Shown piece after piece: positions 10,399-62,316 of a stretch of 64,000 nucleotides of DNA. Origin of the DNA: Podarcis gaigeae (lineage: Eukaryota). The stretch is from NCBI GenBank assembly GCA_964106915.2, contig OZ066926.1; one strand, written 5' to 3'. Positions within the stretch are counted from its first letter, which is position 1. Each line of letters starts with the position of its first letter. The translations under genes were made by a program, and so were the position numbers. Below the pieces are notes generated by a model, which was not told the origin of the DNA, made no database searches, and saw only the letters and a list, made by a program, of their open reading frames with translations.

Positions 10399-10611
10399 CT
10401 TTAGGCATGCTACTCTTCCTGTCTGCATTATGGGGCTAATGCTAATCAATCTGGCAGAGTTGTTGCAATGATTGATGCTACAAGGTAATGTATATTACAT
10501 GCTTTGAACATTCAAAAGCGCTATACAAATGTTGTGCATTTTTGTACTGCTAATATTGTATACCAGTTCAAATGGAGCTAATCAAACCTTGAATGTGCCA
10601 TTGTAAATGTA

Positions 10612-10775
10612 AAGTTGCCAATCAGAATGCTGGTGGTTCAAATCCCCACAATGGGGTGAGCTCCCATTGTTCAGTCTCAGCTCCTGCCAACCTAGCAGTT
10701 CAAAAGCATGAAGTGCAAGTAGATAAATAGGTACCACACTGGCGGGAAGGTAAACAGTGTTTCCATGCGCTGCTT
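10612..10775 (+). mobile_element. Truncated Sauria SINE
   Basis: ggttcaaatcccc...ctcctgccaacctagcagttc...gcaagtagataaataggtacc core shared with the full copies in this window. Confidence 0.75.
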
Positions 10776-10888
10776 GCGTTCGTTGTCACCCATTCTTTTA
10801 ATCAAAGATCTTCCTCCTGGAAACCTTTGAAACTATATGGATACATTTGACTTCAAACTTTGTAATTTAGTGTACACTTATGAAGGAT

Positions 10889-11220
10889 AAAAGGTAAAGG
10901 GACCCCAAACCATTAAGTCCAGTCGCAGACTACTCTGGGGTTGCGGCGCTCATCTTGCTTTATTGGCCGAGGGAGCCGGCATACAGCTTCCGGGTCATGT
11001 GGCCAGCATGTCTGAGCAGCGCATGGAAACGCTGTTTACCTTCCCGATGGAGCAGTACCTATTTATCTACTTGCACTTTGATGTGCTTTCGAACTGCTAG
11101 GTTGGCAGGAGCAGGGACCGAGCAACGGGAGCTCACTCCATTGACGGGAATTGAACCGCTGACCTTCTGATCAGCAAGTCCTAGGCTCTGTGGTTTAACC
11201 CACAGCGCCACCCGCGTCCC
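10889..11220 (-). mobile_element. Sauria SINE
   Basis: Reverse complement runs GGGACGCGGGTGGCGCTGTGGG to ...ccctttaccttt tail; tRNA-like head with GGTTCAA box. Confidence 0.9.
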
Positions 11221-11326
11221 TTGCCATTGTAATCAGAGCAAAATGAAATACAATCTATCCTGCCTTTTCTTCCTCATTTTGATTGGGTGATATCCAGCAT
11301 TGTAAGAGTGGAATTCCCTTCCTATC

Positions 11327-11873
11327 TGTGCTGTTCCCGGGGGAAAGGTACCGTTACCGTAGTCTGAGTTCACAAGATGAGAGGCGAGGTCCGAATCAGG
11401 GAGCCGGGCGGGGAACAGGAACGCTGGAAGGTCAGAAGCAGGAGGCCGGGCAGGGAACAGGAACGCTGGAACGTCAGGAGCAGGAGGCCGGGCAGGGAAC
11501 AGGAACACTGGAAGGTCTGAAGCCAACAACGACGTTGCTCCCGCAACCTGGGACCGGGCTGACTGACCTTTATCTTCTTCTAAGGCCAGGGGCGGTCCTG
11601 GCCCCCTGGAGCCCCGCCTCCTCTGGCCTTAAGGCGAGCACTCCTCCTGGGAGCAACCAGTTCCCTTCGCCTCTCTGCCCTAAGCCTCTGCAGTTCAGAG
11701 GAGGCCGAAGGGTTACTGGGCCCCGGAGGAGGCTCACCTGTAGACACTGAGTCCTCAAGCACCTCTGGGGCCAGAATGGTTTCACCTGGTGCCTGCTCCT
11801 GAGGATCTGACACAGGTGCAGGCTCCTCAGAATCTAGGCCTTGCCCCAGTTCAGCCAGCCCTGGAGGCGGGGA
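11327..11873 (-). repeat. 3' LTR lacking its first 61 bp
   Basis: Aligns to 15260-15760; three copies of the 42-bp repeat and a 4-bp duplication (ctga); joined directly to integrase sequence at 11873/11874. Confidence 0.95.
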
Positions 11874-12012
11874 TCTTAGTGAAATGGTCGGAGAAAACTA
11901 GAGAAAACTAGAAGGCAGGTACAGCCTCGAGACGGGGGTAAGTCCACTACAAAGTCCAGCGAAACCGTGTGCCAAGGACGTGGTGGAACTGGCAATGGCT
12001 GAAGTAGGCCGG
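11874..12012 (-). pseudogene. Frameshifted start of the integrase core
   Basis: An alternative frame gives [42 protein letters not shown]; 10-bp tandem duplication gagaaaacta at 11891-11910; then a deletion junction into the LTR. Confidence 0.85.
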
Positions 12013-15000
12013 GGGTTGCCCGGTAGGGCCCTTGGCCCGCCGGCAGACATCACAACCAGCAACGTAGCGAGCCACGTCAGCTTTCAGGCGGGGCCACCAA
12101 AACTCACGGCTTACCAGATGGGTGGTCCGATACCGCCCAAAGTGCCCCGCTGCTGGGGCATCATGGGTCATCCGGAGAACCTCAGCCCGCAGTGGCCCTG
12201 GCAGGATGTACAGGCGACCATGGTGCAGCAGAAGGCCCTGATGCAAGACCAGCCCCAGATACTGAGGGCTGGACCCTTCAGCCAGCTCCCGGAGTTGTTC
12301 CTGGGCCCAAGCGTCGACCCGCTGCTGTTCCTGCACCCGAGCCTGCAGTGGCTCAGCCTCCTGGGTGGCCAGGAATGCAGCTGGTGGTAGGATCGTGGTG
12401 GGTACTGCCTGCTGTACCGTGTCTGCGTTGTCTTCAGGTTTCCGGGACAGGGCATCCGCCTTCTGGTTTTGGGAACTAGGGATGTAGCGGATCCGGAACT
12501 GGAACCGGGAAAAGAACAACGCCCACCGGATCTGCCTTCGGTTCAGCTTGCGGGTGGTCTGGAGGTACTCCAGGTTCCGGTGGTCGGTTCTCACCTCCAC
12601 TGGGTGTCGTGCCCCCTCAAGATGGTGGCGCCAGACCTCAAAGGCCACCTTGATGGCCAGTAGTTCCCGCTCCCACACGGTATAGTTACGCTCCGCTGGA
12701 AGGAGCTGGCGGGAATAGAAGGCACAGGGTAAGAGTGGCGCTTCAGGTCTATACTGCTGAGACAAGACGGCACCGAGAGCTGTACTGGAGGCGTCGGTCT
12801 CCACCACAAAGGGTCGAGAGGGGTCAAGATGTTGCAAGATCGGCACTCTCTGGAAACAGGCCTTCAACCCCTGAAACGCCTCCTCTGCCTCCTTGTCCCA
12901 GGAAAACGGCGTCTTGGGGCGCAGTAGCCGGGTCAATGGCGTGGTGTGCTGAGCATAATCTGCAATGAAGGTCCGGTAATAGTTGGCGAACCCCAGGAAA
13001 CGCTGTAGGTCCTTGCGGTTCCAAGGTGCCGCCCATTCTCGAACCGCTGCCATCTTCCCAGGATCCATCTGCACCCCATCTGGAGAGAGCCGGTGACCAA
13101 GGAAGTCCACAGACCGCTGATGGAACTCGCACTTGCTGAGCTTTGCATACAAACGGTGCTCGCGCAAGCGCTGCAGCACGGTCCGGACATGACCCTCATG
13201 GCTAGCCGGGTCACGGGAGTAAACCAGAATGTCATCCAAGTACACCACCACGTACTTGTCTAGCAAGTCCTGGAACACGTGGTTGATGTACCGTTGGAAC
13301 ACAGCAGGCGCGTTGCACAAACCGAAGGGCATAACCAGGTATTCAAACTGCCCGTGCCGGGTCCCGAATGCTGTCTTCCACTCATCCCCGTCTCGGATCC
13401 GAATCAAATTGTAGGCCCCCCAGAGGTCTAGCTTGGTGAACACCTGCGCCCCTTGCACCCGCTCCAGCAACTCCGAAATAAGGGGCAAGGGGTACCGGTC
13501 TGGGATGGTCATTTTGTTCAGGGCCCGGTAATCATGGCAAAGGCGGAGCTCCCCACATTTCTTCTTAACAAAGAGCACTGGCGCAGCGGTGGGCGAGGTA
13601 GAAGGCCTGATGAAACCACGCTCCAGGTTCTTGCGCAAGAAGTCCTGCAAAGCCTCACGCTCTGGCTCTGTTAGAGAGTATAAGCGACTCACCGGTAGGG
13701 GCGCTCCGGGCTGGAGGTCTATGCCACAGTCAAAAGACCGATGCGGCGGCAGCTGGTCTGCCCCCCGTTCCTCGAACACGTCTTGGTAGTCCCGGTACAC
13801 GGCTGGGAGCGTGGGTGCTGCCTCCTCCGTGGGTGCGGCCGCTAGCATCTCGGACTGAGCATGGGAACATGGGTCTGGGAAGTGCACAGTCCATTTGACC
13901 CAGTCAATCTGAACATTGTGAGCCTCCAGCCAGTCCATCCCGAGCACCAGGGGGAACCGGGGCATGGAGGCAATGTCCAAGGTTCGCACCTCCCGGTGCT
14001 GCTGGAGACACAGGACCAAGGGCTGGGTCTCCCGAGTGACGGCACCCGAACGCAGGAGCCGTCCGTCAATTGCCTCCACCTGTACCGGTTCTGGCTTGTT
14101 CTGAAGTGGCACCTGATGATGAGCGGCAAAGGCAGCGTCCATATAGGAGCGGGTTACCCCCGAATCTACCAAAGCGTGGGTAAGAATCCAGGGCCCACCT
14201 GGAGGGTAGAGACGCACCGGTACCATGAGATGTCGCAATTCCACTGGTGAGGGCCCTTCTTGCATGGTTTGGGACCCCATGTTGCTAGGGCCTTCGGCTA
14301 CCGAGGTTGGCGGTCTCCCTGCGACTGGTATCTTCTCGGGACAGGAACGGGCATAATGTCCACTCCCACCACAGTAAAGACACAGGTTCCCCTCCCGACG
14401 CCGCGACTTCTCCGAGGGGGAGAGGCGAGGTCGCGCAGCCCCGAGCTGCGTTGGCTCGACTGGCAACTCGGCTGTGGGCGTGGACCTGCTGGGAAGGACT
14501 GGCGCTAGGAGCCGGGAGTGCTGGCGATCCCGGGCCTGGCGACGGTCCTCCAACCGATCGTCTATCTGCAGGCTCCGCTGAATGAGGTCGTCCAGTGTGG
14601 TGGGACGATCCATCATGGCCAACTGGTCCAGTATCTCGTCCGACAGTCCCTCAAGATACTGGTCCCGTAGTGCAGAGTCATTCCAAGACAAGTCTTGTGC
14701 CAACAGCCGAAATTCTGTGGCGTAGGCGGCGGCTGTGGACTTGTCCTGCTTCAACCGACGAATCGCCCGATTGGCTTGGCTCTCCTTCAGAGGGTTACCA
14801 AACACAGTCTCTAAGTGGTTACAAAACCCCACATAGTCCGTTAGCAAAGGAGAGTCTTGCCGGAGCAGTGGCAAAGCCCACTTGGACGCCTGGTCCTTTA
14901 ACAAACTGATTAAAAAGTGCACCTTGGTGCGGTCGTCTTGGAAGTTCCGGGCTCGCCCCTGAATGTACAACTTGGCCTGGGTGAGGAACATGGGAAAACT

Positions 15001-15195
15001 GGCCGGGGCCCCATCAAACTTCTCAGGTAAAGCCACTGGGTACTTGCCAGGAGCCGGGGCGTCGGCCCCAGGAGCCGGTAGGGCGTCCAAGCGCTGCTGA
15101 AGTGCCGTAACCGCGTTGCTGAGCTGCTGCACGGTGTGAGTCAAGGCCTGGTTCTCCTGGGCTATTGGCAGCAGCGTAGCCGCTTGGTCGGCCAT
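11947..15195 (-). CDS. Gag-Pol polyprotein in a single ORF, truncated in integrase
   Basis: From MADQAATLL: coiled coil, PEKFDG capsid, CCHC knuckle [14 protein letters not shown] (about 14341-14382), protease LVDSG (about 14160), RT YLDD (13231-13242), RNase H TDAS/ERELLA/TDHRNL/ADALSR, integrase HHCC (H..H..CDVC); frameshift at 12011-12015. Confidence 0.93.
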
Positions 15196-15243
15196 GGCTT
15201 CTGGCTCTTCCCGAACGCACCCCAACAAAGGGGGAGTGCGGGA

Positions 15244-15259
15244 GGTGGCGGGAGCAAAC
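15244..15259 (-). promoter_or_regulatory. Non-tRNA primer-binding site (self-priming type)
   Basis: GTTTGCTCCCGCCACC immediately after the 5' LTR lacks the TGG of tRNA PBSs and is complementary to GGTTGCGGGAGCAA at 15439-15426. Confidence 0.7.
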
Positions 15260-15821
15260 TGTGCTGGTCCCAGGGGAAAGATACCGTTACCGTAGTCCGA
15301 GTTCACAAGATGAGAGGCGAGGTCCGAATCAGGGAGCCGGGCGGGGAACAGGAACGCTGGAAGGTCAGAAGCAGGAGGCCGGGCAGGGAACAGGAACACT
15401 GGAAGGTTTGAAGCCAACAACGACATTGCTCCCGCAACCTGGGACCGGGCTGACCTTTATCTTCTTCTAAGGCCAGGGGCGGTCCCGGCCCCCTGGAGCC
15501 CCGCCTTCTCTGGCCTTAAGGCGAGCACTCCTCCTGGGAGCAACCAGTTCCCTTCGCCTCTCTGCCCTAAGCCTCTGCAGTTCAGGAGAGGCCGAAGGGT
15601 TACTGGGCCCCGGAGGAGGCTCACCTGTAGACACTGAGTCCTCAAGCACCTCTGGGGCCAGAATGGTTTCACCTGGTGCCTGCTCCTGAGGATCTGACAC
15701 AGGTGCAGGCTCCTCAGAATCTAGGCCTTGCCCCAGTTCAGCCGGCCCTGGAGGCGGGGACTCCTGTGCAGGCTGGGATTCCTCTGGTTCAGCCTCTGAA
15801 TCGGAATCCCAGGCCATCACA
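15260..15821 (-). repeat. 5' LTR (562 bp, TGTGATGG...CAGCACA)
   Basis: About 98% identical to 11327-11873; GATAAA TATA-like box at 15461-15456; two copies of a 42-bp internal repeat. Confidence 0.95.
15467..15817 (-). CDS. LTR(U3)-encoded 116-aa acidic/Pro-rich protein with basic RRSARL tail (putative)
   Basis: ATG at LTR nt 5 in strong Kozak context (GTG ATG G); stop just before the TATA-like box; frame also open in the 3' LTR (11580-11873). Confidence 0.5.
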   Translation of the reverse strand: MAWDSDSEAEPEESQPAQESPPPGPAELGQGLDSEEPAPVSDPQEQAPGETILAPEVLEDSVSTGEPPPGPSNPSASPELQRLRAERRRELVAPRRSARLKAREGGAPGGRDRPWP

Positions 15822-16550
15822 CTATCCTTCTACCTGTAGCCTCTTGCCCTGCCTTCATCAGGGTGTCCCACCTTTACCTGCCACACAACTGGCATTTTAC
15901 ACATTATCCTACTTGTGTAGGGCAAGTGAATGTGGATTGGGATGGATCCATGGAGCAAATTATGACTTTGGATAGGACTAATTCAGTCCACAGGGAGGCT
16001 TTGCCACACTGGTGCCTGGGAAATGCCTTGGAAACTGTGTATCTGGATTAAGGAGGCAATAAAATGGGACACCATTTTGATAAGCACCATGCTCGTGTGC
16101 ATGCAGGAGCCACACTGAAGGCACATAAACTGTCACATGGAAGCACCCACAGATAGTTATCAAGTGTTAACTGGTTTAAATTGGCTCCTAATAAATGAAG
16201 TAAAGCTTTGGGCAGCAGCAAACAGGCCTCCATCACCCAGCAGGTGAGGCAGCTTAGAATGCAATGGGCCTTTTGCTGGTCCAGCTCTGCCCACTCCCCA
16301 ACTTGTTTCAGTGGTTAATAATGGCTTCTGTTCGTGGGGATACCCCCAACACTAGCTTCCACCCACCATTCAAAAACTGCAGCAAGGAGGGACAATTCTA
16401 TCTCATCCAAACCTGTTCCAACATTTGCTCTACCCATTAAAAAAAACCATTAAAACTGTGCTTCTCTTCAGATGGAACAGAATCCTAGCTTATTTTTTTT
16501 TGGGGGGGGTGTCCTGTGGTGACTGAACAGAAGCTTAAAGAGTGATAGTA

Positions 16551-18589: not shown

Positions 18590-19480
18590 CGAGATCTCAG
18601 GGCGGTTCAGGACATAAAATTACAATATAAAAAACACCCCCAAGCCTTCTTGGGCTTGATGGCTGGAGGGACTGGAGACGCGCCGTGACGCAGCCACCTG
18701 CTGCTGCCCGCGGGGAGAGCGCTCCGGGCCGCCGGGGGCCGCGGGAGGGCGCGGCGAGGGCCACGGCAGGCGCCTGGCTGGGCGGAGTCCCGCGTCCGGC
18801 CCCTCGACGGCCCTTCGCCAATGCCGGGCGCGCAGGGCGGAGCCGGCCGGCCGCCTCAGAGCCGCGCTCGCCGCGCCTCGCTCAGCCGCCGCCGCCGCCG
18901 CCGCCGCGGACGCGTCTTCTGCTGGGGGCTCCGCGCGCCCGAGTCCGGGGCCGAGAGGGGGCAGCGCGGACGGGCAGGAGGCGAGCCCGTCCGAGCGGGG
19001 AGGTAAGCGGGGCGAGGAGCGGGGCTTGGCGGGACTGCGCGCCTCAGGCAGCGCCGCCTTCCCAGGAGCGCCCGCCAGTTCCGGGTCCCGGGTGGCCTTT
19101 TTTGGGCGGCGGCGGCGGCGGCGGCCAGGCAGGCGGCCCCCCAGAGCTCCGCGCCCGGCCGCTGAAGGCTGCCGAGTCCGACGGGCGGGCGGGAGGGAGA
19201 GGCGCCGGCAGCCCCGGCGCGCGCGGGTTGCGCCTGCTGCTGCTGCTGCTGCTGCCTCTGGGCGCCCGCGCCGGGGAAGGCGCTGCTGGCTGGCCGCCTC
19301 CCGGGCTGCAAAGCGAAAGCGCAGAGGCATGCCAGGGCCGGCGCGGGAGGGAGACGGCGCTCTCCCCTGCTGAAGTTGGCGTCTAAACATTGCCGGGCTC
19401 CGCTGTTGCCCTCTTCGAGGAGAGGTCCCGGCTGCTGCTGTGTTTGAGCCCAGGCTCTCGGAGCTCGTGGAGCGGTCGAA
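18590..19480 (+). promoter_or_regulatory. TPPP: CpG island / TPPP promoter
   Basis: Very GC- and CpG-rich; CRE-like GTGACGCA about 18685, GC boxes GGGCGGAG at 18780 and 18835, CCAAT at 18818; lies upstream of TPPP exon 2. Confidence 0.8.
18850..19002 (+). other. TPPP: Putative non-coding first exon of TPPP (TSS approximate)
   Basis: Strong donor GAG|gtaagc at 19002/19003 inside the CpG island; exon 2 begins only 4 nt before the ATG, so an upstream UTR exon is required; contains (GCC)7. Confidence 0.65.
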
Positions 19481-34930: not shown

Positions 34931-35281
34931 GTAATTTCTCCCTCCGCTTCTTCTGCCTTATCTTACATCTCCCCCCCCCCCCCCGATATTTGTATTGCTT
35001 AGTCTGTTTGTGAGTAATAATAGGTGGAATATGTTGGTTACATATACCCCAATTACATCATAAACATTGTTTTTAAGTTCTGTAAAACGCGGGGAACACC
35101 ATGCTATCTTCAGATATTGTTGGACTTCAGCTCTCTCCAGCCCCAGCTAGCATGGGCAGTGATCTCAGGTGATGGAACTTAGAGTCCAGCAGTATCTGGA
35201 GAGCACCAGGTTAGCTCCGCCATGCTTTACAAGTTTAGACTGCACATCTGAGTTTATTTTTCTGTAGTAATTAGCATTCAC

Positions 35282-35662
35282 GGGACGCGGGTGGCGCTGT
35301 GGGTAAATGCCTCAGCGCCTAGGACTTGCCGATCGAAAGGTCGGCGGTTCGAATCCCCGCGGCGGGGTGCGCTCCCGTTGCTCAGTCCCAGCGCCTGCCA
35401 ACCTAGCAGTTCGAAAGCACCCTCGGGTGCAAGTAGATAAATAGGGACCGCTTTCTAGCGGGAAGGTAAACGGCGTTTCCGTGTGCGGCTCTGGCTCGCC
35501 AGAGCAGCGATGTCACGCTGGCCACGTGACCCGGAAGTGTCTTCGGACAGCGCTGGCCCCTGGCCTCTTGAGTGAGATGGGCGCACAACCCCAGAGTCTG
35601 GCAAGACTGGCCCGTACGGGCAGGGGTACCTTTACCTTTACCTTTACCTTTACCTTTACCTT
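35282..35662 (+). mobile_element. Full-length young Sauria SINE with (TACCTT)n tail
   Basis: 14-bp TSD taattagcattcac; CpGs intact. Confidence 0.95.
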
Positions 35663-44313: not shown

Positions 44314-45171
44314 TATTTGCACTGCTGTCATTATTATGTGGTAAAGTGAGGTGAATTGGATTGTGATGTGCTTCTTATTTTCCAGCACATTTCAGTGGGG
44401 GATAAGGGAGCATGAGTTGTTCAAACCAGCACATCAAAATTGCTTCTACTCGTGTAACATTTGCTCAGCAAATGTGATGTTGTGTTGTGGATACAGGTTG
44501 ACCTGAAGGCTGCTTTCAACTGCAGAGTGAGTATCCATTAATCATGATGCTAGGCTGCCACAGCTACACGCCAGGCAAACAGAAATCCTGAGAGTAGAGT
44601 TACGGCACAAGAATGGAAACATTGGCTTGTTAAATGCTAACCAAGCAACAGATGAACTGATCACTTGGAGCTGCTTGGGACATGATTAAAAGAGGTAGCA
44701 AGGGATTTTGGCCAAAGGAGTACAGTGCAACGTATTAATTGCATCTTGTTACAGAATGGACTCCCATCAAAAAACAGTCTTTGCATGCTTTGACAGAGAC
44801 GATAATTGGTGTGAAATTTATGTACTATATATAGATAAAGGGAGACTTGTGTATTGCTAAAGGAGCCGAAATTGATGTTACATGAAACCATTCCTCTTTT
44901 GAGTTTTCACGTTGACTTCAATGATGTGGTTAATATCTAGGATTTTATTTTGTTTTTAACTCCGGAAGGGGTAGGAAATGCAAGCATGCACCTCTTGCCC
45001 TTTTTCATCTCTTGGTATTTTACTTATCCCATTTGAAAGTTGTAGTGATGTGGGAATGAGAGTTTAACTTCTAAAACCATGTACGTAGCACAGAAACTTA
45101 GTTTTATGCACTAAGGCCTATTCTGAGAAAGTAGAATAGTAAATAAGACACCTCTAAAATATTGTCCTGTT

Positions 45172-45525
45172 GGGACGCGGGTGGCGCTGTGGGTAAAACC
45201 TCAGTGCCTAGGACTTGCCAATCGTACGGTCAGCGGTTCGAATCCCTGCAGCGGGGTGAGCTCCCGTCTTTCGGTCCCAGCTCCTGCCCACCTAACAGTT
45301 CGAAAGCACCCCTAAGTGCAAGTAGATAAATAGGTACCGCTTTCTAGCGGGAAGGTAAACGGCATTTCCGTATGCTGCGCTGGTGCCGGTTCGCCAGAGC
45401 AGCTTCATCACGCTGGCCACGTGACCCGGAAGTGTCTCCAGACAGCGCTGGCCCACGGCCTCTTAAGCGAGATGGGCACGCAACCCTAGAGTCGGACACG
45501 ACTGCCCGTACAGGCAGGGGTACCT
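45172..45525 (+). mobile_element. Sauria SINE
   Basis: TSD taaaatattgtcct; full head and core. Confidence 0.92.
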
Positions 45526-46951
45526 TAAAATATTGTCCTATTTTTGCCATTTCTGCTTGTTGGGCAATTTTGTGAAATCCAGGTCCTCATATGTAAGATA
45601 TGCAGAAGTAGCACATAGATCAGATCGTAATCCCCTGTTGCTCTCTTCTTTCTGCTGGGTGCTGGTTTGCATAGGCAGTAATTGTGCCTGGGGTCTACCA
45701 TTGGCCAGACTGATCAGGGTTGCTGGCAATCCAATGACACTTGGAGGTCCACAGATGGGCCACCCCTACCCTAGAGCACCATTTCAAGACCCACTGGAGA
45801 CCAGGGTGTGTGGGGTCTTCACTCATTTTCAAATACAGTATCCTACTTCCCTGACCTCCAGCTGTGGACACCAGTGAATGCTGGAATCTCTCTTTGTTTT
45901 TGTCTCTGTTTGGACTTCCCAAAGAATAACTATGTGGGGTTGGGTGAGGTGAAGCTCACAAGGACATGATTTTTTTAAAGAGCTCTTTAATTATAATCAT
46001 GTTTCCTGCAAAACACTCCCCTGCAGAACAACTGTAGAAAAATCACCATAGCGACCAGTGCCGAGGTGAATTATAGCATCTGTTTACATTTTTAGGTTGC
46101 TAAACAGGAGATTAATATAGGAAGTGAAGGAAGCATGGCTGAACTTTTCCTCAGTGGGAAAATGAAGAGGCTGAATACAACAATGGCAGAAACTGAATTT
46201 AGCCAGGACACCTGAGTTAGTTTAACTTCCCTGTTTCCATCACAGCATTTGCCTGGAAACAGAAGCTTGAGGATCTGAATAGCAACACCATTGCCTAACT
46301 TTTTATGGGCAAGGTGATTTTCACACTACAATGCACTGGTAATATTTGAGGGCTTGTTCATATTATTAATGGTGTTGCTTTTAAAAAAAAAACCAACAAA
46401 AACTATGTTGTAGCTGAATATTGTTTTTCTCTAGAGAAACCATTTGGTTTGTAAAAAAATGTTGTTTCACATTCTCTACTTCCCTGAGGGACAGGAAGTT
46501 TCAGTGAAGCTGTTTTAGAGGCTCAAGTTCCTTGTGAGGACTTTGTTCTGGGACATGTGCTGCCTTTTGTTATAAACTACTTATTTACAAAATGTGTGAG
46601 TCTCTCACATGGGCAACTACAAGTTTCAGAGCAACACCAGCTTGCTACTCTAATGTTTCTAGAAGTAGTTTTTGCCCGCCACAGGTCTCTTAGCACCTTT
46701 AATAAACAAGCTTTACTCTCACATTATTTTTGTTTGTTCCTGCCTCGGGGGATGGAGTCAATTAATAATTTACTTTATTGCAGGAACAAATGACAGGAAA
46801 GATGCCAGTTTGATCTGAACAACCCTTTATGTATGTGCTTTATGTGTTTTTATCTTATGCTGGTCTATCATAATTGAGAGAATGAGTATTTGTACGCCCA
46901 ACTTCTACAGTTGCCCTATTGACTATTTAGCATGTGCTACTTATGGATGTA

Positions 46952-47302
46952 GGGATGCGGGTGGTGCTGTGGGTTAAACCACAGAGCCTTGGACTTGCCG
47001 ATCAGAAGGTCGGCGGTTCGAATCCCCGCAACGGGGTGAGCTCCCATTGCTCAGTCGCAGCTCCTGCCAACCTAGCAGTTCGAAAGCATGTCAAAGTGCA
47101 AGTAGATAAATAGGTACCACTCCGGCGGGAAGGTAAACGGCGTTTCCGTGCGCTGCTCTGGTTCGCCAGAAGTGGCTTAGTCATGCTGGCCACATGACCT
47201 GGAAGCTGTACGCCGGCTCCCTCAGCCAATAAAGCGAGATGAGCACCACAACCCCAGAGTTGGCCACGACTGGACCAAATGATCAGGGGTCTCTTTACCT
47301 TT
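46952..47302 (+). mobile_element. Sauria SINE (second subfamily)
   Basis: TSD tacttatggatgta; tail gatcaggggtctctttaccttt. Confidence 0.92.
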
Positions 47303-49992
47303 TACTTATGGATGTAGGTGCTTTTGACAGAATGTCTTCTGATACAACGGGGCAACTCTTTGGTGCAAGATTAGCTGCAGCTCTCTAATTGCCACACTTT
47401 TACCTTATGCTGACCTATGGCCATAATAAAGATTCCTCCTCCTCCTCTTCTTTCTTCTTCTTCACCTTTTTAAAAAATTCTTCACCAATTTAAAGCACAC
47501 ATGCGCGTGTCCGTGCACCCTTCATGTAGAAATTTAATAGACCAGGTAGAAGCATTATTGTAATCCTTAATACGCTAGTTTGTACATAAGAAAGGTTTTC
47601 ATGCTGTTTTCTCTCCCCAGCTTCCCGCCAGCCTGAAGTGCACAGCCAGAATTTTGATCCCTCCTTTAGCACAATTTGTAGAATGGGTCTTAAAATTTCC
47701 AGGTCCCTGCATTGTGACATTGGCAACTAACTCTCTCATCTAGGCCTGCTAGAATACTGTGGGTCTGGTTCACTGCGCTCCATTTTTAATCTTCTGGGTG
47801 TTATAATTTCACTGGCCTGATAGATGTTTCTGTCCTGTAGGTTCGTCCCACTGTTATGGCTCCACTATTTTTAGAAGATGTCTGAGCCTTCTCTTGGTGT
47901 TTCTTGCTGTTCAGAATGGATGAGTACTTGTCTTCTAGTTGTTTGCAGATTCTTCCTAGGCCCCAGCTCGAGATCAGGATGTAGCTGGCCTGGTTTATGC
48001 TAGGTTCTTTCTGGGCTGACTTAATAATGCTGCTCTCTTTAATTAACAGCAAAGCCATACCAGCTATGGTACCCTGCAGAAGTTACTTGGCATCCCCACT
48101 CCAAAACAGAAACCATCCAGACATTCATATATTTAGAAAGTCTTTAATTAATGTTCATTTTCCTTTCCTCCTTATTGGAGGTGTCTTTAAGTGCTACTCA
48201 CTATGGCAAATGAGGAAAGGTTTTATAAGCTGGAAAAGATTCCAGTTCTTCTTTTATTCTTTTCTAGGCTCTCAGTGTGCCAATGATATCTGAGATATTT
48301 ATAGGTTAGCAATGTCTGTGGATTCTGGAGCACTTTGCTGTTTCACAGAGGAAACAGCCCTAAGTGTGCAGTCATCAGGGTATTATATCTCATGGCTCCC
48401 TGAATATGTACCTCTCCAATAAATGTGTTTACAAATACACCGAGGGTTTTTGGAAACAAATATTATATTTTAGGTATACACATAAAGCATTTAGGATATG
48501 TACACCTTAAAAAATAGTGATGTGCAAATCAGCTCTTATCTGCAAGATTGATGGAGAGGCTCAGGAAAAAATAATGGGTCTAGCTCAAGAATCAACATCT
48601 TTAACTCGAAGGGCATGTTGGAACTGTTAGCGTAATGAGTACAAGAGGCTCAAGCAGGTTCCTTGGAACGCTCACATTTGTCATTTATGACCAAGAGCTC
48701 CCCAGGTTTTACAGAAATGAACTGCCCCCACTGTTGGAGGCAGTATGCCTCTGAACTGCAAGGGAGGAGGGCGCTGGGGCACTCAGGATTTGCTTGTGGG
48801 CTTCCCATAGACATCTGGTTACCGCTGTGAGAACTGCCCTGTGATTGGATCAAGGGCGGTATAGAAATTAATTACCGGTAATTGAATTAATTAAATGCTG
48901 GACTAGATGGACCTTTGGCCTGGTCTAGCATGCTCTTTTCTTCTGGACTCAAAATATTTATATTTATTTCAGAGATTTATATCCCTTCCCAGGCAGCTTC
49001 TACGACATGGTAAAACAACGGAAACTTAAATAGAAATGGAAAACAGAACAAAACCCATGTATGCTTGTAAACACCCCTGGTTTGAAATTTTCTGCTGCTC
49101 CACAGAATAATGTGCCTTTTGCTCAGCTGAAACGAGTGCCAGCTTGTCCCATTTATGGAGGCTATCAGCTTGTGCTAGGTAGGCATCTAGCATAGCAGTA
49201 AAGTGCTGTTCCTTGCAGTGATTTGTGGTACCAGCCAAATGTTCATTTTTTTATTCTGATACACTCAGCTGTAAGGATTATAGGCTTATTAAATTAAGGA
49301 AATCAGTACATGAATTTTTTTTTAGTCAATGGCAGCCTTTTTCTTATTCATATTTAATATCAGTAGAACTCCTAATTTAATGTGCCACAAGATAATGCCT
49401 CTCTTACAAATAATAATAATAATAATAAAAATAAATAAATAAATAAATGGAAACATGAAAATGATGAGCGAGTGGCCTTGTAACAGGACAGCAGGTCATT
49501 GTGCTGTTGTTAATCCTGTTCAATTGCTGACTTGCTCTGTGCTTAACAATAGTGGGAAACTATATTGTTTAAAGAAATGCTGCGTTGTTTGGATGTACTT
49601 CTCAGTAAACACAAGAGGCCACAGGGCAGTGCATATGAGGCATGGCTTGGACGCTGTCAGAAATCCCTCCACTGGCCTGAGAAATGGCTTCATAGCAGGA
49701 AGATGGGCAGACTGGCACTCGGATGGTAGCTGCCATCATCAGTTCACGTGCTGTTGCATATCTTACAAAGGGATGTGACAGAGAAATGTGAAGGGGGGGG
49801 GGTGAGTTAAGAGGGTCAGGAATGGACTGCAGTAGCAGCTCCCCCCCTCACTTCCTTCCTCTCAAGGGGTGCAAATAGCCAACGGCCTATAACAAGCCAG
49901 TAGTGAGCCACAAAATTCCCAGTTAGCAGCAACCTATTTAGATATAAAAACAACAACAATAACATGACTGAAGACTCTGAAATAAGATGTAA

Positions 49993-53589: not shown

Positions 53590-53943
53590 AGGGGGAAACC
53601 ACTGAGCCTCTTGGCCCTGCTGATCGGAAGGTTGGCGGTTCAAATCTGTGCAACAGCGTGAGCTCCTGTTGCTCTGTCCCAGCTCCTGCCAACTTGGCAG
53701 TTCGAAAGCACACCAGTGCGAGTAGATATATAGGCACCACTGTGGCAGGAAGGTGAACAGCGTTTCTGTGCACACTGGCTTCTGTCACGGTGTTCCGTTG
53801 TGCCAGAAGTGGTTTAGACATGCTGGCCACACGACCCAGAAAGCTGTCTGTGGACAAACGCCTGCTCCCTTCGCCTGAAGCAGGATGAGTGCTGCACCTC
53901 ATAGTTGCCTTTGACTGGACTTAACTTCTTCTTTTTTTACCTT
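53590..53943 (+). mobile_element. Older Sauria SINE
   Basis: Diverged core ctcctgccaacttggcagttcgaaagca; flanked by taacaaggatgg. Confidence 0.8.
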
Positions 53944-54654
53944 TAACAAGGATGGCTTTACAATCTGACTCTTCGAGCAGTGGTGTGGAGTCACTAATCC
54001 AGGTCATTCTGTTCATTTTTCACTCTCATGTGCAAAATAGTAAGTCGATAAAGCAGCAGAAAATTATTGAAAACAGCAGCTGTTGATGCTTTTTGGTTTG
54101 GAGAATTTTTTTCTGCTTTGTGTTTACTTTTGGGGTTGTTTCTGTGGTCTGTTTATATCACAGTTCTTTGTTGCTTGGAGTGACAACACATTCCATACTA
54201 GTTGGAGTGCTTTGCTTGGTTATTCTAAATTGGCCTTTCTTGGTTAGAAGTTAATATTCCAGATAGATTCCTTCCAGCACTGTTTCTGTTGAACATGCTG
54301 GTGTGTCCACAGGGCCCCTTTAATTTAAGACAACAGCAGTTTGCAGGCTTTTATAGGAGGTGGGACAAACTGCCAGCTAGGTTCCTTTTTCTTTTCTTTT
54401 CTGCCACAACAATGTGATTTACCAACCAAACAGCTTTGGCTGGCGGGTGGAGTGCAGCTTTGAGGGTGACTCCCTTAATGCCAGCTTCTGCTTCCTTCTC
54501 TTACATATTTGGAACTGGAATACTTCTTCAGCTTGATTGGCAGACAAAATACAGATGTCGTTTCCTGGCTCTGTCGTTTGCCTTTGCAGGCAAAGAAAGA
54601 GCAGTTGTGAGAGCAGTTGCAACCAAGCCAGTTTCATAAGTTATAAAAAAATGC

Positions 54655-55156
54655 AGCCCATAGATTGTATTACTGTAGCCTGTTCACCTCTTTGCTGCAA
54701 GATGGTTGAAAAACTTTAGCTGGTGCAAAATTCATTGACCAGGTTGCTTACTGGGACAAGATGGTTTGCACATATAGCACCAATTCTGGCCCAGCTGCAC
54801 TGGCCGCCATTCAAAGTGCTGGCTTTGACTGATGAAAGGCTTAAAACCTCAAGGACTGTCTCTCTCCATAAGAAACAAACTGGACCCTGCGATCCTAATC
54901 TGAGACCCTTCTTTGTGTGCTCTCCCCAAGGAGGCACTCCTGGCATCTTCATTAGGCGCCAGGCAAAAACTTTCCTTCATAACAAGGCCTTTAGCTGATT
55001 CACATTCTGTGACTTTTTAAATGTGTTTGTGGGCAAGGGTTATTGGTTTGTTTGTTTGTTTGTTTGCTTGTTAGTTTTCATTATGTTACGTATTTTGTGT
55101 TTTTGTTTTGTAGATCGCCCTGCAATCTTCAAATGAAGGGCAGTATATAAATGAAT
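54655..55156 (+). mobile_element. Degenerate L2 3' fragment
   Basis: KL.LVQNSLTRLLTG..HIAPILAQLHW..FKVL peptide and L2-type 3' UTR. Confidence 0.7.
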
Positions 55157-55158
55157 TG

Positions 55159-55451
55159 GGGACTTGGGTGGCGCTATGGGTTAAACCACAGAGCCTAGGA
55201 CTTGCTGATCAGAAGGTCGGGGGTTCAAATCCCCACGACGGGGTGAGCTCCCGTTGCTCGGTCCCTGCTCCTGCCAACCTAGCAGTTCGAAAGCACAAAG
55301 TGCAAGTAGATAAATAGGTACCGCTCCGGCAGGAAGGTAAACGGCGTTTCTGTGCGCTGCTCTGGTTCGCCAATAAAGCGAGATGAGCGCCGCAACCCCA
55401 GAGTTATCCGTGATTGGACCTAATGGTCAGGGGTCCCTTTACCTTTACCTT
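55159..55451 (+). mobile_element. Sauria SINE inserted in the L2 tail
   Basis: TSD tatataaatgaat; internal deletion relative to other copies. Confidence 0.9.
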
Positions 55452-60930: not shown

Positions 60931-61952
60931 GGCTGTCAGTGATGTCAAGGGGAGCATGGTGCAGTCTCCAAATAGTTGGATTTGGAAGGATCGAGCTGCC
61001 CAAGCTTAGTCAGATGATCATTCCTTTTTTTAGAACAATACTTCAGCCATTTAGTTTCCCTTTGCCACGTGTATAAAGAATTTTGCTGTAGTCTGCATAG
61101 TTCTCATCAACATACAGCTAAATGGAAAGTGAGAACTTTGAACTCTTTCCAAGATGGGGCAAATTCCATGTACCCCACTGTATATAAGTACGAAGGGGCA
61201 ATCACTGTGGCTTTCTTTGCTGACCTATCTCCCCCCCCCCCCAAAAAAAAAAGGCTGCACATTCTGGTGCATTCTAAGCCACCCTGGGTATTTGATCACC
61301 AAACTGCAGCCCAGTCCTAACTGTGGAAATGAGTTGCTTGCTTCTACTCTCAAAATCCAGGGCTAATTCTGAAGATTAACAGAGCAAGGCGAGCCATCGC
61401 CAGCCCATGGCATTGCCAAGTAAGCAGTGGCACTACCTCTTTCACACTAGCTTTATCAACAATATTATGGGTTTAAGGGCACCAAAGGCTCACTTACCAA
61501 ATACCATGATGGTGTGGGGAGTAAGCAGCAGTGGGTTGCCACTGCTCACCTGACCTCTGGTCAGTTGTGTTTCTGCGACATACCAGGCGGTAGATGAGGA
61601 GAAAGGTTGGCACAGTACAAATATGCCAGCCGAGCTGAGCACTGATGTCACCACTGACTCCATCTCCTGCTAAGTGGTAGCAACCAACTGGAGGTTAGGT
61701 AAGCCATGGCAGCCCACCCACCCACCCCCATCCGCTACTGGGAGAAAGCTGTGCCATTATTCCTGGTTCAAGACCCATGGCACTTTATAGAAATTGAACT
61801 GAAGCTGAGAAGTTTGCTGAGGTGATGGCTGAGCTGGAGGGCCACGCTCTGCTCCTTACCTCAGTGGAACTTAATATGATGAAAACCTAAGATTGATCAA
61901 TGAAGGAGGTCAACCTGTTCCAGTGCCTGGGAATAGAATCCCCCTAACTCAA

Positions 61953-62316
61953 GGGACGTGGGTGGCGCTGTGGGTAAAAGCCTCAGCGCCTAGGGCTTGC
62001 TGATCGAAAGGTCGGCGGTTCGAATCCCCGCGGCGGGGTGCGCTCCCGCTGCTCGGTCCCAGCGCCTGCCAACCTAGCAGTTCGAAAGCACCCCCGGGTG
62101 CGAGTAGATAAATAGGGACCGCTTACTGGTGGGAAGGTAAACGGCGTTTCCGTGTGCTGCGCTGGCTCGCCAGAGCAGCGATGTCACACTGGCCATGTGA
62201 CCCGGAAGTGTCTCCGGACAGCGCTGGCCCCCGGCCTCTTGAGTGAGATGGGCGCACCAACCCCAGAGTCTGTCAAGACTGGCCCGTACGGGCAGGGGTA
62301 CCTTTACCTTTACCTT
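61953..62316 (+). mobile_element. Full-length young Sauria SINE
   Basis: TSD taactca; (TACCTT)n tail; same subfamily as 35282 and 36421. Confidence 0.93.

Follow-up and report, generated by a model that had tools for sequence, protein, structure and literature searches.

The reading frame that occupies most of U3 in a Ty3/Gypsy retrotransposon family of Podarcis gaigeae very probably encodes, in the family's 3' long terminal repeats (LTRs), the last ~117 residues of the element's own integrase, to judge from the sequences of the family copies. This tail ends in RRSARL, predicted to bind the acidic patch on nucleosomes, and it is plausible that the motif would anchor the integration complex on chromatin. 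The frame lies in a 64,000-nucleotide stretch of contig OZ066926.1 (the window), where a sequence-only reading had tentatively taken it for an accessory protein (chromatin tether, anti-silencing factor or transactivator), translated from the ATG of the LTR by way of a spliced or subgenomic RNA. Of that reading, a coding frame under selection, the conserved RRSARL and a plausible role in chromatin tethering survive; the separate protein does not, since copies of the window's family (family A) carry the frame as a continuation of pol and the sister families C and D lack the ATG.

The element and its U3 reading frame

The window element is on the minus strand and consists of a 5' LTR, a single Gag-PR-RT-RH-IN frame in the usual Ty3/Gypsy order (Pfam) and a truncated 3' LTR, flanked by a GATAG target-site duplication. 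Its features are as follows.

15260..15821, minus: 5' LTR, 562 nt, with TG...CA ends; TGTG start at 15821
15467..15817, minus: U3 reading frame, 116 codons, ATG at LTR nt 5-7; passive duplicate in this 5' copy
15593..15817, minus: residues 1-75, a linker rich in acidic residues, Pro and Ser and predicted to be disordered; between families its length changes in steps of 3 nt
15542..15586, minus: predicted charged helix, residues 78-92 (low-confidence model)
15518..15535, minus: RRSARL, HMGN/Dsup-like motif, residues 95-100
15456..15461, minus: TATA-like GATAAA, starting at LTR nt 361 (15461), 6 nt past the stop of the U3 frame
15426..15440, minus: self-primer, where the transcript is inferred to begin; pairs with the primer site
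15243..15257, minus: self-priming primer binding site, adjoining the LTR
11947..15195, minus: single frame for Gag-PR-RT-RH-IN (zinc finger), probably starting at 15195; the frame shifts soon after the zinc finger
11327..11873, minus: what remains of the 3' LTR after loss of its first 61 nt; U3 frame open, RRSARL at 11631-11648
15822..15826, minus: target-site duplication GATAG; second copy at 11322-11326

The window copy is defective, having lost the integrase core, GPY/F, chromodomain and PPT; family copies have the chromodomain at the integrase C-terminus. Because the integrase core, chromodomain and PPT are gone, the continuation of pol into U3 is invisible in the window. Positions 15440-15426 are complementary to 15257-15243 at 14 of 15 nucleotides, 10 of them in a perfect run, consistent with self-priming as in the Tf1/sushi chromoviruses (PMC6317226). 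We class the element as a self-priming chromovirus of this type: like them it has a single gag-pol frame, GPY/F, a chromodomain and sushi-like LTR ends (PMC6317226, PMC3601003). A first look at the DNA gave 1741 candidates, the best 40 at 99-100%, for what is a young and abundant family; the closest named relatives are Podarcis records.

The U3 frame at 15817..15467 translates into the 116 residues originally quoted. It was said to fill U3 exactly, and nearly does: the stop lies just before GATAAA, as described, whereas R would start ~25-35 nt beyond this TATA-like box, a U3/R border placed by the position of the self-primer pairing just past GATAAA. The frame is indeed open in the 3' LTR remnant as well, and the product is bipartite as proposed, with 18 D/E, 10 S, 16 P and no K/R in residues 1-75 and 10 K/R in residues 76-104. 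The accompanying caution that GC-rich DNA yields long frames by chance was well placed. The GC content is 62%, and in 20,000 composition-matched Markov simulations the U3 frame stayed open in 3.1% and some frame in 25%, making openness by itself weak evidence; we judge the frame real because it is conserved, rather than merely open.

The tail matches no Pfam family, the HMGN domain included, and has no usable match in the ESM Atlas; a PDB sequence search with the 39-residue motif region gave 0 matches. An AlphaFold model of chromodomain plus tail was poor (mean pLDDT 50, chromodomain unfolded), with a helix at 149-163 weakly usable only (best block pLDDT 72).

The pol-to-U3 junction in family A

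Where family copies retain the 3' end, the Gag-Pol frame leads from the chromodomain across the PPT and on into U3. Of 155 distinct chromodomain loci collected from the assembly, 145 have the junction. The spacing is 164 nt, which is in frame and forms the central class, in 72 of these, 163 nt in 30, 165 nt in 30 and another length in 13; sorted by phase, 73 junctions are in frame, 35 have a stop overlapping the U3 start and 37 are in the third frame. An earlier set of 58 pattern matches had given 25 in frame, 21 with stop overlap and 12 in the third frame, and none of the first four 3' ends inspected was in frame, three having the pol stop over the U3 ATG. Within the window's own subfamily 9 of 20 junctions are in frame and 8 have a stop overlapping this ATG.

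The spacing variation resides in a G run centred on 8, the G6 of the PPT being stable in 127 of 138 copies. On a 144-copy tree the out-of-frame states are unclustered (50 changes, against 48.0 +/- 3.3 when shuffled) and equally common on short and long terminal branches, and 11 duplicates that share one flank show four different junction spacings. In three short-read runs from other organisms G-run indels make up ~1-9% of summed contig depth, a quantity that differs from copy count and comes from contigs that drop rare variants. The simplest reading of the variation is an in-frame element overlaid by homopolymer error or recurrent slippage; the 9 of 20 in the window's own subfamily and the loss of rare variants from contigs speak against it. 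If error predominates, the assembly overstates frameshifts in G8 runs, where about half of the copies differ by one G. The case carries a more general caution: an open reading frame in the LTR of a Gypsy element may belong to the terminal part of pol, and G-run errors in an assembly can mask this.

A stop-restart at TGATG was our first reading of the junction and was dropped after the wider junction count, family D, the tree and the short-read contigs. A search with a loose PPT pattern returned 11 matches against 7 in the control, none with integrase upstream. As a separate observation, 26 of the 58 junction pattern matches fall on a single 29.5 Mb contig (C32), ~2% of the genome and possibly the W chromosome; the 11 copies at ~24.6-27.3 Mb of this contig share one flank and are thus segmental duplicates.

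Sister families and related records

In family B (30 loci) the U3 frame spans 141 codons and again contains the helix and RRSARL; the sole junction found is in frame. Families C, D and E cross the LTR edge in the same codon phase, with a tail that is acidic and then basic. The LTR of family D starts TGTCAGG and has no ATG, and 16 of 16 junctions among its 30 loci are in frame, some of these junction loci being partial or tandem. One of two junctions is in frame in family C and one of three in family E; one family F copy reads through in frame with two stops. The LTR ATG is kept in families A, B and E and absent in C and D. It sits in the integrase attachment end, for which the published Sushi 5' motif is TGTYANR (PMC3601003), and is therefore likely a by-product of that end.

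The families differ in the motifs that their tails carry. All end in a basic block, and none of C, D and E has RRSARL. In 19 of the 21 C/D/E junction loci scanned (L263, L293-L308, L323 and L324), a helix, an acidic linker and FxGF follow right after the chromodomain, a pattern found in 0 of 145 A/B junctions; one family F copy (beside L395) has two FxGF motifs in tandem. This arrangement matches the definition of LEDGF/HRP2-binding motifs (hydrophobic helix, acidic linker, FxGF) given in a publication on TND-interacting motifs whose passages name no transposon carrier (PMC9987994), making the C/D/E motif a candidate of this type. That two lineages have different chromatin-type motifs in one region would support a targeting role. 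LEDGF is the host factor used by HIV integrase, and if our reading is true the FxGF lineages converge on it. We put forward tentatively, as a real possibility, that squamate sushi-type elements possess a swappable, partly LTR-encoded integrase tail of host-mimicking motifs, RRSARL for the acidic patch in some and FxGF for LEDGF/HRP2 in others.

A tegu-protein search of the genome returned mostly family A matches. Five of six P. muralis records with a chromodomain carry the fused tail. Gene models of the Ensembl type can bridge frameshifts, a caveat on such records. Records from Rhineura, Salvator, Naja and Crotalus combine a chromodomain, a similar junction of the G-[DG/S]-x-V-M type and an acidic tail, and P0074, a chromodomain-integrase fragment from ENA that is only distantly related to the lizard family, has a tail ending in RRSARL; in all of these the LTR edge was placed from the junction peptide. 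A further 145 representative proteins were mostly unrelated multi-chromodomain proteins, with one case of RRSARL after a chromodomain and the acidic tails of the four named squamates. RRSARL may reach beyond squamates.

Selection on the tail

The expectation that a functional frame would show dN/dS below 1 and indels in multiples of 3 was largely borne out. We estimated dN/dS from pairwise divergence between groups, net of that within groups (kappa 3), using the 15 of 24 family B copies with intact phase and at most 20 copies per A subfamily. Between A and B the tail gives 0.36-0.43 (CI 0.24-0.61), a sign of purifying selection, distributed unevenly: 0.11-0.16 in the first 17 codons, 0.58-0.76 in the linker, with a CI reaching 1.0-1.4, and 0.27-0.37 in the helix and motif. 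Among the A subfamilies the tail gives 0.38-0.84, most CIs spanning 1, and the other sense frames 0.8-5.3; the comparisons share branches and so are non-independent. Constraint is stronger on GPY/F plus chromodomain (0.11-0.21) than on the tail.

Nucleotide-only alignments give a similar picture, with the third-position excess seen without guidance from the protein. Mismatch by codon position is 0.14/0.13/0.57 in the first 17 codons and 0.26/0.13/0.38 in the helix-motif part, and of 1487 gaps, 1195 have a length divisible by 3. Each of the six A subfamilies has RRSARL as its commonest form; the motif is present in 130 of 144 indel-free family A copies and recurs in family B, in line with the predicted conservation of the motif; its RRSAR core is exact across A and B despite a dS of ~0.7-0.8. 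For families C, D and E there is little codon-position signal between families, a comparison that is uninformative because the alignments lost phase. C/D/E copies chosen for reaching the basic block contain on average 0-0.25 stops in the tail frame and 2.7-4.9 in the other frames. Overall, the pattern is consistent with constrained ends on either side of a disordered spacer.

RRSARL and the nucleosome acidic patch

RRSAR corresponds to the modelled core of HMGN2, in which the fifth residue is the arginine anchor, and HMGN-related motifs are also described for Dsup and Dot5 (PMC12487698, PMC13347269). The complete core is present in the tail, in a chain predicted to be disordered, where PRRSARLKA resembles PPRRSSRLT of Dsup and RRSARIAT of Dot5 (PMC12487698, PMC13347269); the tail octamer RRSARLKA matches 7 of the 8 residues of the HMGN octamer RRSARLSA. 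HMGN, Dsup and Dot5 are free chromatin proteins, whereas the RRSARL tail is part of an integrase within a polyprotein and its binding is a prediction.

We modelled tail residues 72-110 with H2A/H2B of the same genome. The complex scored 0.71, against 0.02 for the best of three controls, with at least 92% of contacts shared between runs and a partner pLDDT of at least 64. Among microbial pairs, 51 of 78 solved and 2 of 108 mismatched ones attained the mark used, as did 39 of 65 and 2 of 126 among eukaryotic pairs; peptides fall outside this calibration. In the model, tail residues 92 and 94-100 contact H2A 61-66 and H2B 45-51 and 106-110 (counting Met), and R99 is placed against H2A E61 (mature numbering). 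This modelled surface is the one contacted by Dsup and HMGN2 (PMC12487698). Similar HMGN/Dsup complexes have been solved and the model may recall them, so the docking indicates likeness and not binding. On balance we lean slightly towards RRSARL binding the acidic patch in vivo.

A model for the tail, and its alternatives

Genomic RNA would end in U3-R, and with U3 present at its 3' end only, ribosomes translating pol would enter the 3' U3. Protease would then release an integrase in which core, GPY/F and chromodomain are followed by a disordered acidic spacer, a basic helix and RRSARL. The chromodomain would recognise a histone tail, with RRSARL docking on H2A/H2B at the same time, and RRSARL may double as a nuclear localisation signal (NLS). 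Since reverse transcription copies U3 into both LTRs, 5' and solo LTRs hold a silent duplicate. The suggestion that solo LTRs spread the protein through the genome is less likely on this model: their frame, like that of the 5' LTR, lies upstream of its own inferred transcription start and would not normally be expressed.

A separate accessory protein, made from the LTR ATG through a spliced or subgenomic RNA or by stop-restart at TGATG, would account for the ATG shared by the LTRs of families A, B and E, for the overlapping stop-start at 35 of 145 junctions and for the strong conservation of the first 17 codons (dN/dS 0.11-0.16). We nevertheless regard it as improbable. The frame is kept in families C and D without an ATG, the ATG lies within the attachment end, and the 35 stop-start junctions are mirrored by 37 in the third frame, form no clades and are rare in short reads. 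RNA runs of another organism listed no splice joint, but at an integrase depth of ~1-5, too low for this to count on either side. Still less probable, and largely refuted by the sequence comparisons, is a functionless read-through tail that owes its open frame to GC content and constraint on the promoter. Chance openness in the simulations and the near-neutral evolution of the linker fit this explanation; it is opposed by the third-position excess and gaps of 3n, by the dN/dS of 0.8-5.3 in the other sense frames and by the scarcity of stops in the tail frame of the C/D/E copies, which were preselected.

An integrase tail whose basic block acts mainly as an NLS or as a DNA/RNA-binding signal, its likeness to HMGN being incidental, is possible but somewhat doubtful. 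A basic block ends the tail in every family and RRSARL is limited to A and B; moreover, the C-terminal NLS of Ty1 integrase also has a targeting function (PMC7459421), and K/R-rich stretches of beet chromovirus integrases have been likened to NLSs (PMC3605345). On the other hand, the exact RRSAR core is retained between families at the dS given above, RRSARL also ends the unrelated chromodomain integrase record P0074, and the complex model puts the motif on the acidic patch. The roles of NLS and tether are in any case compatible, and an integrase tail that would act as a chromatin tether is the reading we prefer.

Relation to known systems

The closest precedent is that of the plant CRM elements, whose targeting motif the 3' LTR encodes; a pol that reaches into this LTR and carries such a motif is known for group A of CRM and for some members of Reina (PMC3059260, PMC3605345). 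The lizard tail, in which pol likewise extends into the 3' LTR, would be a vertebrate variant. In CRM group A a CR motif replaces the chromodomain, the primer site is that of tRNA-Met and the host is a plant (PMC3059260, PMC3605345). The lizard element has a true chromodomain upstream of the PPT, with the tail after it, is self-primed and lives in a vertebrate. It therefore works like CRM but is no member of that group, having kept the chromodomain and self-priming. From described Tf1/sushi (V-clade) elements it differs by an extra selected U3 tail of ~100-140 residues with short motifs of chromatin type. Among the titles and abstracts covered, incompletely, by our literature search such a tail is undescribed for vertebrate chromoviruses, and an earlier description is possible.

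Retroviral coding sequences that overlap U3, such as MMTV sag and HIV nef, give separate proteins from spliced RNAs. The lizard frame shares the coding U3 with these, but it is joined to pol as its continuation, and its start codon, absent in C and D, is unconserved across families. TND-interacting motifs find their likeness in families C, D and E and in one F copy, and are absent from the window's family.

To our knowledge, the choice of integration sites by vertebrate Ty3/Gypsy elements is largely untested. If our reading is true, it describes a new way for such elements to choose insertion sites, a mobile element joins the short list of carriers of HMGN-like motifs, and the plant CRM architecture gains a vertebrate parallel. 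Sister families with different motifs offer a natural comparison for insertion-site preference, and a selected tail with recognisable chromatin motifs allows direct, cheap tests at the level of peptides.

Further observations

The gag-pol frame of the window element can be read without a stop from an ATG located in R of the 5' LTR (15426), where the 3' LTR has ACG. R/U5 holds a 42-nt tandem unit (11350-11520 in the 3' LTR) whose copy number is unequal between the two LTRs; as the unit equals 14 codons, the gag-pol frame stays open. Two Podarcis host gene models, P0022 and P0008, start with a U3 tail derived from an LTR, P0022 containing the entire family B tail including RRSARL, a possible case of exonisation or of annotation artefact. 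Elsewhere in the window, a host gene's CpG-island promoter or first exon lies at ~18650-19400, some 3 kb away from the 5' LTR, and short interspersed repeats present in many copies, which we take to be SINEs of the Sauria type, are found at 10590-11213, 35278-35644, 45167-47307, 53592-55451 and 61949-62316.
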